Under the pieces are notes generated by a model, which saw nothing but the letters and a program-made list of their open reading frames with translations, did no database searches and had not been told where the DNA came from. The position numbers and the translations under genes were made by a program. Of a stretch of 41,744 bases of DNA, positions 1-8,644 are shown piece by piece; the first letter of the stretch is position 1, and each line of letters begins with the position of its first letter. This DNA is from a virus (taxonomy: Duplodnaviria; Heunggongvirae; Uroviricota; Caudoviricetes). The stretch is taken from the IMG/VR virus record IMGVR_UViG_2563366971_000005. The stretch is one strand, 5' to 3'.

Positions 1-342
1 CCTTATCCCGCGGCGTTACATGGTCAATTTGATTCCATTTCCATGTTTTACCTTCTTCACTGCCTGCCTGGAAATATATCTACAAAAAGCTGTGTAATAC
101 GCAATGCGGCGCAGGCCTTAACTGACGATGGAACTCTATACGGAGCCACAATTCTTGGCGATGGAGTTGTGCACAATAGCTTCGGTCAAAAACTGATGCG
201 CATTTACAATCAGAAAGGCATCTTTTCAAACACAAAAGATTCCGAAGAAGGCTTAACACATATACTCTCAGAGCATTTCGAGAATGTTAAAACCAAGGTT
301 CAAGGTACTGTAGTAATGTTTTCCGCTTCAGGGAAAAAATAG
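1..342 (+). CDS. Hypothetical protein, 5' end open at window edge (partial CDS)
   Basis: Frame of ORF 43..342 has no stop back to position 1, so the CDS may begin upstream of the window; no family recognised. Confidence 0.3.
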   Translation, partial: PYPAALHGQFDSISMFYLLHCLPGNISTKSCVIRNAAQALTDDGTLYGATILGDGVVHNSFGQKLMRIYNQKGIFSNTKDSEEGLTHILSEHFENVKTKVQGTVVMFSASGKK

Positions 343-544
343 CATCCAACCGCAGCACGTTCTTGCTTAAGACGTGCTGCGGCATAATCCCAATGATTAC
401 TCCCTGACAGGGTTCGTAGGCCACTCAATATCAGGTGCAGTTGATGTATCAACACGGTTCAGCAACACCCTGCATGCCTTCCATGCCGCCAGCAATGATG
501 TTTCCTCCTTCGTTGCATATACTGCTCACCTTTTTCACCCACGA

Positions 545-766
545 TTAACCAACAGCCAGATTCGCAGGCACGCCCCACCACGGCATATTCATACGCTTGC
601 CATGCCCGAACATTTCAATCCAGCGATATTCTGCCTGGGTGTGTTCACGCGCAATGAAGAACGTACAACCGGCTATCGCCCCGTAAGCCCAGTTTCCGGT
701 AAAAAGACCAGCCAGTACCTGCACCGCCACGGCACAAAGCGCATGAAGTATCGACGTGATATCCAT
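545..766 (-). CDS. Small hydrophobic protein, unknown function
   Basis: 73-aa ORF with ATG start and upstream AAGGA; hydrophobic N-terminal half; lies 9 nt downstream of the acidic ORF 776..1054. Confidence 0.4.
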   Translation of the reverse strand: MDITSILHALCAVAVQVLAGLFTGNWAYGAIAGCTFFIAREHTQAEYRWIEMFGHGKRMNMPWWGVPANLAVG

Positions 767-775
767 CTGCTATCC

Positions 776-1054
776 TTAAAACCACTCCCTGAGCGGGCGC
801 TCTGGTGTAACCACCCACTCACGGAACACGGAATCATCAAATCCATCGTCAAGAAGACGGATATTAACAAAGTACCCTTCGTTTCGCGTGTATTCTGGTT
901 CTCCGTCATCAGAAACATCTGTCTCCCTGAACGTAAAACCAATCTCATCAACCAGAACGGCATTCTGCAGCTCTTCGTCCTCTTCCCAGTTAAGTTTCCT
1001 GAGAAATGCCCTGAAATCTGCTTTATCACTGAAACGCAACGTGAAATCTCTCAC
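776..1054 (-). CDS. Small acidic protein translationally coupled to tail fibre gene (possible fibre chaperone or DNA-mimic-like protein)
   Basis: 92-aa ORF, about 24 Asp/Glu, no internal Met; GTG start overlaps the stf stop (GTGA) and is preceded by GGGGAGG. Confidence 0.45.
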   Translation of the reverse strand: MRDFTLRFSDKADFRAFLRKLNWEEDEELQNAVLVDEIGFTFRETDVSDDGEPEYTRNEGYFVNIRLLDDGFDDSVFREWVVTPERPLREWF

Positions 1055-3114
1055 TCCACAACCTCCCCAAGCTGCGCATCTGTTAGCTCTTTATGCCAGA
1101 GACGAAAATTCCTCACATGCCCAAATAAATGGCGTAATCCTGCTGTAGTTTGTCCACCAATGCGAATGGTTGCTGTACTCCGGATATATTCCCATTTGGT
1201 TTTAGTTTCGCTGCTTAACTTACCGTTACTGACTACACATGTGGACCGTTCGGACTTTACCCGCATACCAATAAGCATTTTTTTCAGCCCGGCATTTTCA
1301 TTTATTCGTCGGTTTGAACCACCAATATCACAATACGGAAAACCGTCGTACCCACCTGATGAACCAAACCCCATTACGATCCCCGCATCTGCCTGATGCC
1401 GGTATGTGTCAAAAACACGTGGCGCTGCATTTGGCGTTTTATACCAGTTCTTATGTACCTCACAAAGAACCGTAAAAGGAAGATTATAAAGATTATTCTT
1501 AATCGGAACTGTAACCATATCGCTTGCCCGCGTTACCGGTGCCGTCCCCGTAACAATAAAAGATGATGCGCCTGTACCAGCCTCAATCTGTGGAGTGGTT
1601 ACATCGAGATAATCCCTTGATGCAACCATCTGCCCTGTATCCGGAGAATACTGGACAAAACCGCCAACCGTATTTTCTGTTGTATCTGCTTTTAATGTAG
1701 CCTCAAAAAATATCCAGCCAGTTGCATCATCCTTAACAGACCTTGCTGTAACACGGCTTGTCTGACCTGTCTTGCTAATTATGCGGGTGGTAAGGTTCAG
1801 GCTTGCTGCTCCTATTGATGTCCTTACCTCCCCATCATAATGTTCAAATAAAATACGAACGGCGATATTATCAACTTCACTTTTTACCCGACAGGATATA
1901 GTTACATACTTTTCGTCCCCTGAAGTATCAACCCCTCCGGTACTCGAATACAGTCCGATAATGGTATGCGCTTTACTTGTACCAACAATCGAATCCTGTA
2001 CGACAAACCGGCCATAATTAAACCCGAAACTATCTGTGCCTGTTTCTGTAACGTCCAGTGAAGTTGACTTATTCCACTTCGAAGGGTCTGTACTGTTCGG
2101 GAAGAAGTTCGTTCTTTGCCCCTCAATAAGCAGGCCATCACACTCAAATCGTGGCTCATTAATTTCCGCCGTTTTCAGTTCGCCAGATTTGTTGATATAT
2201 GTTGCCGTTGATGCGCGACTGAAATTAACCTGTTTATCACTGGCAACCTGAACCACATTATCACCAATCTTCACTTTTTTATAACCCGGAGAATAGCCCG
2301 TAATCATATCCAGCGAATCATTAAAGGGTATCCACACATCCGGCAGCGGCTGTAAAACATATCTGTACGGCTCTGCTGTCTGGTTTGCGTATTCTCTGGC
2401 AGCATCTTCACTTGCTTTTGCTGCCGTCTGGCTTGCTGCCGATGCTTTCGCCGAGTTCGCCGCCGCTGTTTCGCTCACCTTTGCGTTGGCTTCACTGTCT
2501 TTGGCATTCGTCTCACTGGTTTTCGCTGCCGTCTGGCTGGATTTTGCGTTTTTTTCGCTGGCCTTTGTGGCTGTCTCGCTATTTTTCGCGTTGGTTTCTG
2601 ATTTTTTGGCTGCTGTCGCGGAGTTTGCCGATGCAGTCTGCGAGGCCGCTGCCGCCTGTGCGCTGTTAGCTGCATTCGTTTCTGAGGTTTTCGCCGCATT
2701 CTTCGATGAGGCTGCTGCCGTTTCGGATTTCTTTGCCGCCGCTGCACTCTGTGATGACGCTCCGGCATGACGTGCCACTTCATTCACCATCAGCTCAAAA
2801 CGGCGCAGTGCCTCCGGACGAACATCATCCTCCGTCATGGCACCGAGAAAATCATTCAGCGTACCTGGTCTGGAACCTTCATAGACGGTAATGGTCCCGG
2901 CATGTGAAGGCGGAAAACCTTCAACCAGCAGGATGACGCTGTACTGGCCATACTCAACATCCATGCTGTAACGCCCGGCTTCATCCGGATTTTCAGAGGC
3001 CACCGTGTTCACCACCACCGTGCTGCTGGTCCGTCTGGCCTTCAGCACAATGGTGCAGTTCTGTACTGGTTTTCCTGTGCCATCTTTAAGCACGCCAGAA
3101 ATTTTTACTGTCAT
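1051..3114 (-). CDS. stf: Side tail fibre protein (lambda Stf-like N-terminus, divergent C-terminal domain)
   Basis: N-terminus MTVKISGVLKDGTGKPVQNCTI... matches lambda Stf; Ala/Ser/Thr-rich KxSETNA repeats; divergent C-terminal region. Confidence 0.9.
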   Translation of the reverse strand: MTVKISGVLKDGTGKPVQNCTIVLKARRTSSTVVVNTVASENPDEAGRYSMDVEYGQYSVILLVEGFPPSHAGTITVYEGSRPGTLNDFLGAMTEDDVRPEALRRFELMVNEVARHAGASSQSAAAAKKSETAAASSKNAAKTSETNAANSAQAAAASQTASANSATAAKKSETNAKNSETATKASEKNAKSSQTAAKTSETNAKDSEANAKVSETAAANSAKASAASQTAAKASEDAAREYANQTAEPYRYVLQPLPDVWIPFNDSLDMITGYSPGYKKVKIGDNVVQVASDKQVNFSRASTATYINKSGELKTAEINEPRFECDGLLIEGQRTNFFPNSTDPSKWNKSTSLDVTETGTDSFGFNYGRFVVQDSIVGTSKAHTIIGLYSSTGGVDTSGDEKYVTISCRVKSEVDNIAVRILFEHYDGEVRTSIGAASLNLTTRIISKTGQTSRVTARSVKDDATGWIFFEATLKADTTENTVGGFVQYSPDTGQMVASRDYLDVTTPQIEAGTGASSFIVTGTAPVTRASDMVTVPIKNNLYNLPFTVLCEVHKNWYKTPNAAPRVFDTYRHQADAGIVMGFGSSGGYDGFPYCDIGGSNRRINENAGLKKMLIGMRVKSERSTCVVSNGKLSSETKTKWEYIRSTATIRIGGQTTAGLRHLFGHVRNFRLWHKELTDAQLGEVVE

Positions 3115-3126
3115 ACTTTTCCACCA

Positions 3127-3161
3127 ATAAAAAAAGCCCGCAGCAGTGACGCCACGGGCTT
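3127..3161 (-). terminator. Intrinsic terminator candidate downstream of lom
   Basis: Stem aagcccg/cgggctt with 14-nt loop, followed on the - strand by a T-run (A-run 3127..3135 on +). Confidence 0.45.
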
Positions 3162-3265
3162 CAGGACAGTGTAACTTTACGTTTCCTCAAACGCAGTTCA
3201 CCCCATAAGGCGGATGAACCTGCGTATCATAACAATATTTACAGAAGATAAATCGGCGTCTGTTG

Positions 3266-3865
3266 TCAGAAACGGTATCCGATACCAACAATAAATGCAT
3301 CCGTTCGCCAGTCGCCACTGCCGGAGCCTTCATAAGCAATATCAATGGCCACGGATTCGGTCGGGTTAAACTGCACGCCAGCTCCCCACGCCAGAGAGGT
3401 ATTGCTGTGGCGACCGTCATCACTTCCGGTCAGCACGTCGTGCGTTTTCCCCTTGTTGTCAGTTACGCGGAGATAATCCCCGGAGAAAGTCGACACACGG
3501 CTGTAAGCCACACCTGCCATCGCATAAGCACTGAACCATTCATTCACGCGCACAGACGGCCCCGCCATTACGCTGAACCAGCGGTTACGCACGGAATCTT
3601 CATGCCAGCGGGTATCGCTGTAATGCGTTTTTTGCTCATCTTTGGCATTGGCATAACTGAATGACGTCACCAGCCCCAGCGTGTCCGTAAACTCATAACG
3701 GTATTTCACGTTAATCCCGTTCAGATCATCGCTGCCAGGCATATCAGTATGGGTCTGAAGATACCCGGCGCTTAGTGTGGACTGATGCTCTGCTGCGCTC
3801 GCTGGCGTACCAGCGGCAACCAGCCAGACTACTGCGGACAGAATAACAGCACATAATTTACGCAT
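3266..3865 (-). CDS. lom: Outer membrane protein Lom (Ail/Lom family beta-barrel)
   Basis: 199-aa ORF with signal peptide; C-terminus ...AYEGSGSGDWRTDAFIVGIGYRF matches lambda Lom. Confidence 0.9.
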   Translation of the reverse strand: MRKLCAVILSAVVWLVAAGTPASAAEHQSTLSAGYLQTHTDMPGSDDLNGINVKYRYEFTDTLGLVTSFSYANAKDEQKTHYSDTRWHEDSVRNRWFSVMAGPSVRVNEWFSAYAMAGVAYSRVSTFSGDYLRVTDNKGKTHDVLTGSDDGRHSNTSLAWGAGVQFNPTESVAIDIAYEGSGSGDWRTDAFIVGIGYRF

Positions 3866-3887
3866 AATTACCTCTCGCTTTTCTGCA

Positions 3888-3913
3888 ATAAAAAAGGCAC
3901 CATTTCTGGCGCC
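3888..3913 (-). terminator. Weak hairpin plus T-run between J and lom
   Basis: Imperfect stem ggcacc/ggcgcc followed on - strand by TTTTTT; one mismatch in stem. Confidence 0.3.
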
Positions 3914-3932
3914 CGTATTGGGGTTATAAAAT

Positions 3933-6900
3933 TCAGCTAATCGTGATGCCTGCAGTGGCTTTCTTCATCACAACAACCAGCAAATCGCTGATACTTGCTG
4001 TGGGATACCAGCCATTTACCCACCATGCTGATACAGAAAACTCCAGCGTCATGTGACCGCGACCAGCAGGCATATCAATAACACCACTGTAAACCAGCGT
4101 ATTATCCAGCGCGGTACGGTTATAAATTTCAGCACCGTTTTTCTTCACTATCAGGCGGCATGACGAATAAGTATCGCTGTTCTCCCGCTCATGTCTGGCA
4201 CCGCTGAAAGCCACCGCCGGAATAACAATCTGCCGGTTAAACGGCTGATCGTCATAAACCCTGACGGTAATGGTTCCTGATGGCCAACGCTTCGGTGCAC
4301 GGGAGTCACGGGGGAAAGCCTTACCCACTGTTTTAACGAGATCGCCTTCAATCTGGTTTGCAGACAGTTTCCCTCTGATGACACAGTTCTCGTTAATGGT
4401 GACATTATTGAGCGTGCCGGTATTCGCCGTGATGGCTCCACTGATATCCGCATTGCGGGCTGTCAGCCTGCCATCCGGCGTCAGGGAAAACGTCGGAGGA
4501 TTGCCGGATGACGTGATGCTCACCGCAAACAGTCGCTTCAGGAACACGTCGTTCATGAACAGCTGATTCCCCTGCGCCACAAACAGCGGCGTGGTGTTGC
4601 CGTTCTCCGGGGTAATCATCGCAATGCGATCGGCCTGCAGCAGAATGTTACTCAGGGTCTGATCATCAACATCCTCAATCCCCGCGCCAATCCCGGCCAC
4701 ATAGGGAATACCGTTTTTTGTTTTCTGCACCTTCAGCATATACATGGCATTCAGCTCATTGCGCGTGTCTGACTGAACCCGCTGGATTTGCTGTATGGTC
4801 ACGGCCTGGTCACCCAGCTTTTTATCCGTGGTCGAGGTAATTTCACTCCCTTTTTTATCCACGTACTGGCGGACCTGTGCTATCTGTCGGGCGTTTTCTG
4901 ACTGCCCCTGGCTGACAGTCTGTGAGATTTCACTGCTCACCCGGTCCACTTTCTGGCTCACCTGCGCGATGGCCAGTGTCTGGTCCTCATTCTTTTTCGC
5001 AACCAGCTGCGTGAGGCTGTTTTCCGCCTTCCCGATTTTCCGGGTCACTTCTGCGATATCCGTGTCCATCCGCTGACGGATATCTTCTTCCAGTTGCGTG
5101 ACCTCCGTACGCAGCGCTGAAGCATCAATGCGCTCTTTCAGTGCCTGACCCAGAAGCGTCTCATCTATCAGCCCCCGGAAAATTTCCAGATACCCTTCAC
5201 CATCATTGCTGGGCTGCCCGCTGGCTTCCACAAAAGCAGATTTCCCCACCAGGTTGACGCTGCGCACGTAAAACCAGAAATCCGTCCCCGGCTTAATCCG
5301 GCTCCCCTGGACAGTCCACTGACTGCCGGTCCCCAGATAACGGGCAGATTTTTCCACCTGTGCCGTGTTCGTGATGCGTTTTTCTGAGAACCAGAATTCA
5401 AACTGTACCGTCGGGTCATACACCGCAAGACGCGGGACCGCCGTTATCTGAAAATACCCCGGCGTCAGCTCAATGGTGGCGGGTTTTGCAGGTGCGTTAA
5501 TCCGGAAGGTGGTGGTGGCAGGTTCACCCTGCTGGCCATAACTGTTTATCGCCCGCACCGTCAGGGTGTATTCCCCCAGTGGCAGGCCACTGAAACGGTG
5601 CTCCGTGTCTGCGGTGATGGCGGTGGTCACCAGTCTGGCATCCGTTCCCTTACCACTGGTCAGGCGCAGACTGAAGCGCACGCCCTTCACCACCCGCGGC
5701 GTGTCCCATTTAGCCTGCGCCAGATACTGGCCGTCAGCTGCGCTCACCTCCACCGTCAGGTGCTGTACTGCCGGTGGGATGACGCTGTTCAGGGAGCCTG
5801 ACTGCGGCTCAAAGCGGGCACCGTTATCCACGATGGCTTCTTTTTCCGGTACGTGCTGCACCGCCGTGATGGCAAAGGTGCCGTCCGTGTTTTCCCGGAT
5901 GGAGACACAGCGGAACAGGCGACGGCGCAGTGACGGCAGGGAGAGTCCCCACACACCGTATGTCTCCACACCATCCGGCAGGGTGCTGACCTGTATCCGG
6001 TCAGGCGCGGGGTGTGCGGTGATGGCCACGCTCGCCGGCTTACCGCTGCCGTTAATCAGATTAACAGTGGCCGTGCCGGTCTCCGGCAGTGTCACCTCCC
6101 GGTCCAGCGTCAGGGTACGGCTGGCGGCATCGATGGACAGGACACGTCCGCCGGTCATGGTCCCGGCATAGTCGTTATCACAGATTTCAATGATGTCACC
6201 GGGTGTGTGCCGCAGCCCCTGAGACCCGAGCGTGAAATCCACCGTCTGCGTTTCCAGCAGTTCGGTCTTTATCACCCACAGCCCGGCACGGTGGGCCTGA
6301 CCGCGGCTGGTACAGCCGAACGCGTCCATCTTCAGCAGGTTGCGTCCGTAGCGCAGTATGGCTTCCGGGTCTTCCACCAGTTCCGTGGAGGTCTGCCAGC
6401 CGTTCTGCGGGTCGGTGTAATTCACCTCCACCGCCGTGTGCCGGTCCTTCAGGGCACTGAAGCTGTAGCGGAACCCCACGCCGTTATCATCCACCACCAC
6501 ATCGCTGTTGGTGTACGGCCACACCACATCCGACGGGCGGTCCTGAACGAACGTCAGCGTCTGACCGTTCCATACCGGCATACAGCGCATCGCAGAGCAG
6601 AAATCACTGAGAACGTCCCACGCCTTACGCTGTTGTGCCAGGTACGCATTAAAGGTCATCCGCGGCTCGGTCCCCCCGAAACCATCCGGGACCGTCTGGT
6701 CGCAGTACTGCCCGATGGCATACAGCGCCCACTTGTCCACATCCGCCGCCCCCAGACGTTTTCCCATGCCGTAGCGCGGGTGAGTCAGCATGTCCCACAG
6801 GCACCAGGCCGGGTTGTTGCTGTATGCCGGTTTCAGACTGCCGTCCCAGATACCACTGTACGTGCGTTTTTCCGGGTCATAGTTTGACGGCACCTGGATG

Positions 6901-7625
6901 ATGCGACCGCGGATATGGTAGTTCACCGTCATCTGCTGGCCGCCGAACTGCTCCGCATCCACCTGCAGCCCCACAATGGCCGTGTTCGGGTAGCACTGTT
7001 TCACATCGATGATTTCGGTGTATGACGACCACAGCGTCTTATTCTGCAGCTGGTCCGTGGTGCTGTCCGCCGTCTCCCTGACCATCCGGATGTTAAAGGG
7101 CCGGGGAGGCAGATTATCCAGAATCACCGAGGCCAGGAACTGTGAGGTGGTCTTGCCGTTAATGGTGACGTCCTTTTCCGTCACCCAGCGGCCATTACGC
7201 TGTAACTGAATCAGAATCCGGACAGAGGAAGGATTACGGTCGCCCTTTGACGTGGTCTGCACCAGTGACTGCACCCCGAAGGTAACCCGCAGGCGGTCAA
7301 TGTTCGCGGACGTAATGGTGCGCGTCACCGGTTTTGCCTTCGTCACTTCCACGCCCAGTCCGGTTTCAGCTCCGGAGGACTCAAAGCCTTCCGGTGGTGT
7401 CTGCTCCTGCTCCCCGGCACGCCAGACCGCGGTCACACCGTGTATCACGGGATTACCGTCCGTGTCCGTCAGCGGGGTTTTGTTCACCAGGATACTCTGC
7501 AGTCCCTTCACCGGACCTTCTATCGGTCCCTCACCAATCGCATCAATCACACTCATCATCTGCGTGGATTTGAGATTATCCTTCGCCTCACGAGGCGTGT
7601 GTGCCTTACCGCCACCTTTTCCCAT
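3933..7625 (-). CDS. J: Tail tip / host specificity protein J
   Basis: 1230-aa ORF; N-terminus [22 protein letters not shown]... and much of the length match lambda gpJ. Confidence 0.95.
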
Positions 7626-7731
7626 ACAGCCTTCCCCTGAATAAATTAACCGCCACTTGCCATTCCGTACAGAAGTCGGATATCCTTCGCCCGAAAAGCA
7701 TGAAACACATTTCTGCCATGCTAAAGAGAAA

Positions 7732-7764
7732 CCCCGGTATCAGCAGATACCGGGGTTTTCTTTC
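7732..7764. terminator. Perfect 10-bp hairpin flanked by T-rich sequence on both strands (bidirectional terminator candidate)
   Basis: ccccggtatc / gataccgggg stem with 4-nt loop, then ttttctttc on +. Confidence 0.5.
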
Positions 7765-7821
7765 ATGCCCACCGATAATCCTGTTGGTTAAAACCGGTAA
7801 TGGCATAAAAATTCTGAATAT

Positions 7822-7858
7822 CTTCACATTTTCACAAAATCCCTGTGGCACTTATAAT
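7822..7858 (+). promoter_or_regulatory. Sigma70-like promoter candidate in I-J intergenic region
   Basis: ttcaca (7831..7836), 16-nt spacer, tataat (7853..7858). Confidence 0.4.
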
Positions 7859-7865
7859 TTCTCTG

Positions 7866-7957
7866 CGTTAATTTTTTTTGTCGTGACATAAGAATAATTA
7901 TCTATAGTTGATCTTCGTAACGCTCCCGCAGCTCCGCAACTCTGCGGGATTTTTTTA
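7866..7957 (+). ncRNA. Candidate small RNA (about 90 nt) between promoter and intrinsic terminator, antisense orientation to the late operon
   Basis: Promoter-like element upstream, no credible ORF, ends at hairpin 7924..7948 followed by 7 T. Confidence 0.35.
7924..7956 (+). terminator. Intrinsic terminator (+ strand)
   Basis: Stem tcccgcag/ctgcggga, 10-nt loop, followed by ttttttt. Confidence 0.55.
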
Positions 7958-7963
7958 TTCTTT

Positions 7964-8644
7964 TTACCCCTGCCGCCCGATAACCACGACCTTTCCGCCC
8001 CCGCCTTCATCACGGGTGCTGATGTCCTGGGATATACGGCGGGAGCCAACCAGCATTTCCCCGTAAGGCACCGGCATCGGGTTCCCCTGGGCAATCATGT
8101 TATCCAGCGAGGAAAAGTACGTGTTCTGTCTGCCGTTATCCGTTACGCGGTAATCCGGTGTTTTTGCCTTCGGGGCCAGCATCTGTGCCACACCGCCCAG
8201 TATCATGCTGGCCCCCAGTGAAAACAGCATCGTGGTGGCAGAAAAACCACCGGCTGCCAGGGCTGAACCCCATAACGCCATCGAGGCACCGGCCGTGAAG
8301 AAAGAGCCCACGATGGCTGCCGCCCCCAGCACAATCTGCAGTCCGCCCTTTCCGGCTCCGGCCAGTCGCGGCACAATGTGGATGACCGTTCCCTCACCCA
8401 GCTGTTCGTGAAGACGGGCGTACACCGCCTCCGGTGCCGTGTCATCACCGGCAATACGTATCTGGTACCAGCCTTCGTTCATCTGACGGCGAAAGCCCGG
8501 CACCTGTAACGACAGGGCACGGATGGCTTCCGCTGCCGTGTTCACATACAGGCTGAGGCGGCGGCCAAATCGTTGCAAATCCCCGTGAAGGCAGATGCGT
8601 GCCAGTGGCGGTGACGCCAGACAGAATGCGTTCGTCGTTGCCAT
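7964..8644 (-). CDS. I: Tail assembly protein I
   Basis: 226-aa ORF matching lambda gpI (…ARICLHGDLQRFGRR…); overlaps K 3' end as in lambda. Confidence 0.9.
   Translation of the reverse strand: MATTNAFCLASPPLARICLHGDLQRFGRRLSLYVNTAAEAIRALSLQVPGFRRQMNEGWYQIRIAGDDTAPEAVYARLHEQLGEGTVIHIVPRLAGAGKGGLQIVLGAAAIVGSFFTAGASMALWGSALAAGGFSATTMLFSLGASMILGGVAQMLAPKAKTPDYRVTDNGRQNTYFSSLDNMIAQGNPMPVPYGEMLVGSRRISQDISTRDEGGGGKVVVIGRQG

Follow-up and report, generated by a model that had tools for sequence, protein, structure and literature searches.

A lectin-like fiber tip and a small acidic protein form a portable two-gene module in tailed phages

INTRODUCTION

Receptor-blocking or exclusion genes stand beside the receptor-binding genes of several phages, as llp does in T5, cor in phi80 and N15, and gp15 in HK97. 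The region between the fiber gene and att is a recognized home for such additions, with cor, lom, and bor as established examples. In the present study we examine this end of a lambdoid prophage of extraintestinal Escherichia coli, IMG/VR record IMGVR_UViG_2563366971_000005, whose entire 41,744-nucleotide stretch is called the window throughout. At the left edge of the window, the side tail fiber gene stf is followed by a gene for a 92-amino-acid protein (p92), a 73-amino-acid open reading frame (ORF), a perfect hairpin, and an ORF on the opposite strand that is already open at base 1. An earlier sequence-only reading placed these genes where lambda has tfa, in a segment from tail fiber to att known as a cargo hotspot, noted that any system here may continue to the left of the window, and raised fiber assembly and anti-restriction as candidate activities.

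Separately encoded fiber chaperones that act as transient "caps" have been described in Alteromonas phages V22 and A5, and they are reported to resemble the intramolecular chaperone domains of other receptor-binding proteins (PMC10579305). A fiber accompanied by a small cognate accessory is already known as an arrangement. What we describe are two general patterns, the pairing of p92 with one kind of fiber tip and the placement of a second small protein, p97, behind receptor-binding genes.

RESULTS

Homologues of p92 are encoded directly behind receptor-binding proteins (RBPs) in phages with quite different tails. In a Mu-like Leclercia prophage, a 498-amino-acid Laminin_G_3 protein and a 94-amino-acid p92 homologue lie between the DNA-circulation and baseplate-hub genes, and in a lambdoid Leclercia prophage, a 560-amino-acid Laminin_G_3 protein and a 100-amino-acid p92 homologue follow gpJ. 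A P1-like contig carries two RBP-p92 pairs in tandem, one of 730 and 94 amino acids and the other of 437 and 95. The RBPs upstream of p92 in Mu-like, lambdoid, and P1-like tails are all homologous to residues 252 to 682 of the stf product from the window, and this segment aligns with the Laminin_G_3 proteins that precede p92 homologues elsewhere at 29 to 30% identity, with E values from 1e-30 to 1e-43.

The two genes are also tightly joined. Across 96 loci representing 47 distinct p92 variants, the RBP stop codon overlapped the p92 start codon in all variants but one (46/47), by either 1 nucleotide (TAATG or TGATG) or 4 nucleotides (ATGA or GTGA). The window has the GTGA form, at the coordinates given in the sequence-only reading, along with a GGAGG located 7 nucleotides 5' of the p92 GTG start. 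When the search was reversed and begun from homologues of the distal region of the fiber, using viral contigs with enough sequence downstream, p92 was found immediately downstream at 70 of 70 loci. Where p97 was present, it sat 3' of p92 and never between p92 and the RBP. Because the pairing recurs across tail types and in both search directions, p92 is part of a portable two-gene module that it forms with the lectin-like tip. The 92-amino-acid gene had been read as cargo, but it travels with the fiber tip and not with the cargo region.

The stf product itself begins with a lambda-type anchor (Pfam phage_tail_N, E 1.8e-68). Residues 329 to 530 match NCBIfam GTA_spike_fiber, and sequence matches among Protein Data Bank entries include 9e7m, "Tail fiber protein" (residues 1 to 94), and the RcGTA head spike fiber 6tb9 (residues 298 to 545). 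At the other end, the C-terminal domain matches Pfam Laminin_G_3 (PF13385) with an E value of 0.0064 and 17.1 bits, which is below the cut-off of 27.6. Three of four homologues scanned carry Laminin_G_3 above threshold, scoring 36.9 to 44.8 bits over the equivalent C-terminal 150 or so amino acids. The middle domain, which resembles the GTA head spike fiber (residues ~257 to 537, window positions 1498 to 2343), exists as two alleles with ~100% and ~61% identity to the window, as seen among E. coli prophages that have a near-identical stf N terminus, last 150 amino acids, and p92. The switch between these alleles leaves p92 unchanged, and the presence of two alleles amid constant flanks points to domain-level swapping within the fiber.

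The sequence-only reading called the 92-amino-acid protein acidic, and it is, with a net charge of -12 and an isoelectric point (pI) of 4.26. This property extends to all 44 distinct pairs, in which p92 has a net charge of -6 to -14 and a pI of 4.1 to 4.6, and it is mirrored by the last 150 amino acids of the partner, which carry +3 to +8 with a pI of 9.1 to 10.5 in the same 44 pairs. The middle domain of the partner is acidic. In the window, the fiber tip has a net charge of +8 and a pI of 9.6. The two members of the module differ in how fast they change: an all-pairs analysis found p92 at least 85% identical while the tip was less than 60% identical in 104 pairs, and the opposite pattern in 1 pair. 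A specific co-variation of p92 with the last 150 amino acids of stf, an idea drawn from E. coli and phage 21, was weakened by this analysis because p92 is simply more conserved than the tip.

Over its full length, p92 belongs to phrog_1361, a family annotated as function unknown (E 1.1e-40, residues 1 to 92 on profile positions 1 to 92 of 92). No Pfam, NCBIfam, or PADLOC family matched p92, and none of 88 family members matched any Pfam family. Comparison with Caudo_TAP (PF02413) produced no match to p92 at an E value of ≤1 and none to these 88 family members at ≤0.1. Exhaustive phmmer searching recovered relatives in 56 representative clusters and profile searching recovered 297 clusters, mostly from Escherichia, Leclercia, and Enterobacter, every one of them annotated as hypothetical. 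At ≥95% identity, the p92 gene is found in 365 of 5426 complete E. coli genomes.

Invariant positions in the p92 family are M1, D3, L6, F8, D36, G60, N64, R66, P87, R89, and W91. The last three fall within a conserved P-x-R-x-W motif in the final ten residues, where the mean predicted local distance difference test (pLDDT) score is 63. The AlphaFold2 model as a whole is a compact alpha+beta domain with three helices (pLDDT 91.7), and no solved chain matched this predicted fold at a significant score. One candidate relationship was rejected. Through many weak stretches, phmmer linked p92 to giant PKD-repeat proteins (P0152, P0163, P0165, and others), and these stretches cover the beta-strand region of p92; since no p92 family member matches any PKD model and the predicted fold has three helices, we rejected homology, and the resemblance is probably similarity at the level of a motif.

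The 73-amino-acid ORF is present 9 nucleotides after the p92 stop, as the sequence-only reading had it, but it is neither an intact gene nor a native gene product, being a frameshifted and truncated version of p97, a 97-amino-acid three-helix membrane protein. Its match to phrog_1443 covers residues 1 to 65 only, on profile positions 1 to 65 of 97, and no full-length family match was found. Relative to ev243, phage 21, and S88, a 62-bp deletion with its junction near 570/571 shifts the frame, so that the invariant D79 and P83 are gone and the MPWWGGFD motif ends after MPWWG. The Prokaryotic Genome Annotation Pipeline (PGAP) labels the locus a pseudogene. The same junction occurs in 47 of the 5426 complete E. 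coli genomes, which are of varied types and include enterotoxigenic and ST95 strains, and we therefore regard it as a circulating dead allele and not a sequencing error. The deletion (at window ~559 to 571) falls, in the intact allele, between two similar short sequences, CGCCACCACCGGCA and CGCCCCACCACGGCA, a layout that points to imperfect direct repeats having slipped or recombined.

Intact p97 is predicted to form three helices (pLDDT 91.7) and contains an invariant polar motif made up of H8, Q16, R40-E41, Q44-I50, R58, M61-P62, G65-F67, W72, D79, and P83. The family comprises 571 clusters and extends to Salmonella, Enterobacter, Leclercia, Aeromonas, and Comamonas. Searches placed p97 in no Pfam, NCBIfam, or PADLOC family, PHROGs offered only a function-unknown family, and no fold match was obtained. 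The sequence-only reading had considered that homologues might assign the small proteins to known fiber-assembly families; this is so for neither p92 nor p97, and a literature search found no characterization of the phrog_1361 or phrog_1443 family.

Among close E. coli relatives, p97 follows p92 at 78 of 80 loci. Diverse viral loci look different, with neither p92 nor a LamG-type protein accompanying p97 at 48 of 79. When p92 was missing, p97 lay within 102 nucleotides downstream of an ORF of 392 to 1309 amino acids in 45 of 49 occurrences. Ten of these large ORFs were sampled, and every one encoded an RBP, with differing architectures: P22-type head-binding domains plus S74, TSP1/Gp66-type spikes, a GDSL esterase spike, P2-type fibers, and gpJ-like proteins. 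Since it follows RBPs of many kinds, often without p92, p97 is an independent gene placed behind receptor-binding modules. One viral contig (L192, positions 2905 to 8324 of IMGVR_UViG_3300045988_107072) has two RBP-p97 pairs in succession, the first a 693-amino-acid Tail_spike_N protein with a 99-amino-acid p97 and the second an 814-amino-acid GDSL-esterase protein with a 97-amino-acid p97. A lone p97 homologue also occurs in the chromosome of Aeromonas rivipollensis (CP149130; locus L005, 6001 to 6309), where its neighbors are pirin and RIO1-kinase genes and phage genes are absent nearby, so the family is not strictly phage-borne. As a guess, p97 could serve in superinfection exclusion or envelope modification.

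Beyond the 73-amino-acid ORF lies a feature missed by the sequence-only reading, a segment (397 to 516) that matches the end of Pfam Caudo_TAP (E 2.9e-14, profile positions 95 to 130 of 131) and that PGAP calls a pseudogene. This 3' remnant of tfa just downstream bears out the suggestion that the 92-amino-acid gene occupies the place of tfa in lambda. In phage PhiR26_1, the DNA matching window positions 1 to 516 consists of a YbcY-annotated gene plus the 3' end of tfa, which in that phage is intact and comes after an ordinary stf. Together, the remnant and the PhiR26_1 layout indicate that a cassette of stf, p92, and p97 took the place of one made up of stf and tfa, and that the joint lies near 517. 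Coordinates of these features and of the neighboring genes are collected in Table 1.

Table 1. Features at the left end of the window and in the adjoining late tail genes
Feature	Coordinates	Strand	Description
YbcY-type methyltransferase, C-terminal 113 codons	1-342	+	phrog_2132; open from base 1 to TAG at 340-342
Hairpin	350-382	.	Perfect 11-bp stem, 11-nt loop
tfa 3' remnant, 39 codons	397-516	-	Pfam Caudo_TAP
73-amino-acid ORF, defective p97 allele	545-766	-	phrog_1443 residues 1-65 only; begins 9 nt past p92 stop
p92	776-1054	-	92-amino-acid acidic protein, GTG start; phrog_1361
GTGA stop/start overlap of stf and p92	1051-1054	-	Translational coupling
stf	1051-3114	-	Side tail fiber, 687 amino acids; TGA stop at 1051-1053
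stf tip domain, last ~148 codons	1054-1497	-	Basic, Laminin_G_3-like (ConA-like lectin); proposed p92 binding partner
Intrinsic terminator between lom and stf	3133-3162	-	13-bp stem, then T-run (terminator scan)
lom	3266-3865	-	Late tail gene
J	3933-7625	-	Late tail gene

The hairpin is present as first described, with fully complementary, G+C-rich 11-nucleotide arms (350 to 360 and 372 to 382) separated by 11 nucleotides, and it sits in the 54-nucleotide gap between convergent stops at 342 on the plus strand and 397 on the minus strand. Its folding energy of -23.9 kcal/mol (z = -5.6) was equaled by none of 200 shuffled sequences. Matches in other phages either stop at 382 or start at 343, so that mosaic joints fall at the hairpin. 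It probably ends both convergent transcription units and marks the joints between modules. Whether it is a functional bidirectional terminator, as opposed to a chance inverted repeat or a mere recombination joint, seems to us evenly balanced: the strength of the stem, its position exactly between convergent stop codons, and its sharing by different modules joined at 343 and 382 would fit termination, while the 11-nucleotide loop, the lack of a T-run adjoining the stem on either strand, the silence of the terminator scan at this site, and the several other perfect 11- to 13-bp inverted repeats in the window count against it. RefSeq places a 45-amino-acid hypothetical protein (WP_001309429.1) at 287 to 424 on the minus strand, spanning the hairpin and overlapping the end of the methyltransferase gene; this is probably a spurious gene call.

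The plus-strand ORF is open to base 1, as had been reported, and matches phrog_2132 (E 1.4e-78, profile positions 106 to 218). The full-length gene of 222 amino acids is seen in the source genome and in ev243, and its S-adenosylmethionine (SAM)-binding N-terminal half falls outside the window. The full-length protein matches Methyltransf_12, -23, -25, and -11, reaching 37.6 bits against a cut-off of 30 for Methyltransf_12, and the homologue in PhiR26_1 is annotated as YbcY. By these matches, the edge ORF encodes the C-terminal half of a predicted class I SAM-dependent methyltransferase of the YbcY type, and it represents separate DLP12-like cargo. A housekeeping gene had been considered for this position; the ORF belongs instead to a prophage methyltransferase.

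Bases 1 to 1100 of the window are 100% identical to the chromosome of E. coli MS20657, a bloodstream isolate, where the prophage adjoins yecD. To the left of the window in MS20657 (locus L003, 5897 to 11524), there is a second tfa remnant, a 494-amino-acid alpha/beta hydrolase with a TAP-like C terminus, and ompT, and still further left are genes for a helix-turn-helix protein and an acetyltransferase and a DinI-like gene, followed by yecD. No integrase was found on that side in the block between the window edge and yecD. The expectation that cargo would continue leftward was therefore borne out, from the tfa remnant to the DinI-like gene, but the small genes and the edge ORF do not form one system: they lie on opposite strands, the tfa remnant and the hairpin stand between them, and they have different mosaic histories. 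A multigene system across p92, the 73-amino-acid ORF, and the edge ORF is not supported, and no finding ties the methyltransferase cargo in function to p92 or p97. In phage 21 (locus L002, 507 to 3956), the stf-p92-p97 trio is followed by sitABCD iron/manganese transporter genes in place of the YbcY/ompT block, so the cargo next to the trio is interchangeable.

Our reading of the region is that the late tail operon of a lambdoid prophage finishes here and gives way first to an older recombination scar and then to unrelated cargo. A strong intrinsic terminator separates lom from stf, which leads us to propose that only late transcription that has been antiterminated would extend into stf, p92, and p97. 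Phage 21 has a terminator annotated at the same lom-stf position.

DISCUSSION

By asking which genes accompany p92 and which genes accompany the fiber tip, we arrived at a two-gene unit. Within our overall best explanation of the locus, we lean slightly toward p92 being a dedicated partner, either a chaperone or a cap, of the basic lectin-like fiber tip. According to this proposal, stop/start coupling would cause p92 to be made in step with the fiber, and the acidic surface of p92 would bind the basic tip domain. p92 may then help the tip fold or trimerize, or alternatively it may cap the tip and keep it from adhering to anionic components of the cell before release. Functionally p92 would take the slot held by Tfa in lambda, without being Tfa by sequence or by predicted fold.

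Several observations weigh against this proposal. Binding of p92 to the tip, like the putative chaperone or cap activity, is inferred from sequence, with linkage and charge as the evidence. Because the pairs share ancestry, their charge pattern does not amount to 44 independent observations, and adjacency of the stf and p92 genes could by itself explain their co-occurrence. The stf of the window falls short of the Pfam threshold for Laminin_G_3. Among Leclercia prophages, identity drops to 40 to 50% in the tip while p92 stays near 90%, and so either p92 contacts conserved features of the tip or it acts on something else.

The evidence of linkage, coupling, and charge would serve equally well if p92 were a structural subunit of the virion, either a retained distal adaptor or adhesin comparable to gp38, the distal adhesin on the fiber tip of T2-type phages, or a branching adaptor for a further RBP. 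Branched fibers would suit locus L010, where a second fiber gene with Peptidase_S74 comes after p92, and locus L013, with its two RBP-p92 pairs in tandem. We consider a structural subunit unlikely, though deserving of attention, as no further fiber gene follows p92 in the window or in phage 21 and p92 is far more conserved than the fiber tip, which is not the behavior of specificity-determining adhesins and fits a chaperone or cap better. It is quite improbable that p92 and p97 together make up a two-gene exclusion or receptor-masking cargo behind the fiber gene, like cor or llp. Such cargo would be at home between fiber and att, which generally hosts exclusion-type genes, and p92 does precede p97 at nearly all p97 loci in E. 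coli lambdoid prophages (78/80), with both also present in two P1-like contigs. Against this, p92 occurs without p97 in lambdoid and Mu-like Leclercia prophages, even within a baseplate gene cluster, and p97 occurs without p92 or a LamG-type RBP upstream at most diverse loci (48/79), where in the absence of p92 it still follows closely on large ORFs (45/49), those sampled being tailspikes or fibers. The window itself keeps p92 intact and p97 defective, and PADLOC matched neither.

Anti-restriction by an acidic DNA mimic, one of the activities raised by the sequence-only reading, is hardly credible for p92. Small size and acidity are the only points in its favor, and that acidity is mirrored by a basic partner domain. 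Without exception p92 is joined to a receptor-binding gene of the tail, within late or structural operons that include the Mu-like baseplate cluster, PADLOC returned no match, and the alpha+beta model, with no significant match among solved chains, lends no structural support to a mimic such as Ocr or ArdA.

Returning to p92 as a partner of the fiber tip, a bolder form of the idea is possible, although we hold it with considerable doubt. p92 might define a new class of fiber accessory that mimics an anionic receptor surface and caps the basic lectin-like tip until release, with the tip and p92 forming a portable host-recognition module able to fit siphovirus, Mu-like, and P1-like tails. Separately, intact p97 might be a widespread and unrecognized factor placed after RBPs of every kind, for example, of a new inner-membrane superinfection-exclusion class.

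Receptor-binding modules are the parts exchanged to retarget phages, tailocins, and DNA-delivery particles, and an exchange that omits a required accessory gene does not succeed. Should p92 prove obligatory for Laminin_G_3-tipped fibers, it would have to move with the tip in engineering work. Pairs of p92 and tip are also found in Leclercia as well as in P1-like and Mu-like elements. A role for p92 would also let annotation pipelines name what is now a common "hypothetical protein." p97 deserves interest as a small, conserved membrane protein that accompanies receptor-binding genes in different tail types. At the locus itself, there is one intact fiber-linked gene and one dead gene, and the rest is recombination scar and known DLP12-type cargo.

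The closest parallel for that cargo is the DLP12 prophage of E. coli K-12, with the gene order tfaD-ybcY-tfaX ... ompT. The segment at and to the left of the window edge has the same content, since a YbcY-type methyltransferase lies between two tfa remnants and ompT comes later. In contrast to DLP12, the prophage in the window has an intact methyltransferase (222 amino acids) and a complete tail module. For p97, the comparison is with llp, cor, and HK97 gp15, as the p97 family likewise closes tail operons, immediately behind the receptor-binding gene. Unlike these genes, p97 encodes a polytopic, three-helix inner-membrane protein with the invariant motif REHTQAEYRWI ... MPWWGGFD, belongs to no known family, and is conserved whatever kind of RBP lies upstream; in the window it is truncated.

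For p92, the nearest relatives in arrangement are the lambda Tfa and Mu-type assembly proteins (Caudo_TAP, PF02413), whose genes are also directly 3' of the fiber gene and co-expressed with it, and Tfa, like p92, is presumed to help the distal receptor-binding domain. p92 differs in having no Caudo_TAP match in any of 88 family members, in being about half the size of Tfa, and in its compact alpha+beta model, and the domain with which it is paired is a jelly roll of the Laminin_G_3-like kind, not a lambda/Mu-type fiber tip. The chaperones of V22 and A5 are reported to resemble intramolecular chaperone domains (PMC10579305), whereas p92 has no significant fold match to any solved chain. A cap at the distal end is proposed for both, in the case of p92 from sequence, and both consist of a fiber with a small cognate protein encoded downstream, in a host-recognition module common to morphologically different phages (PMC10579305).

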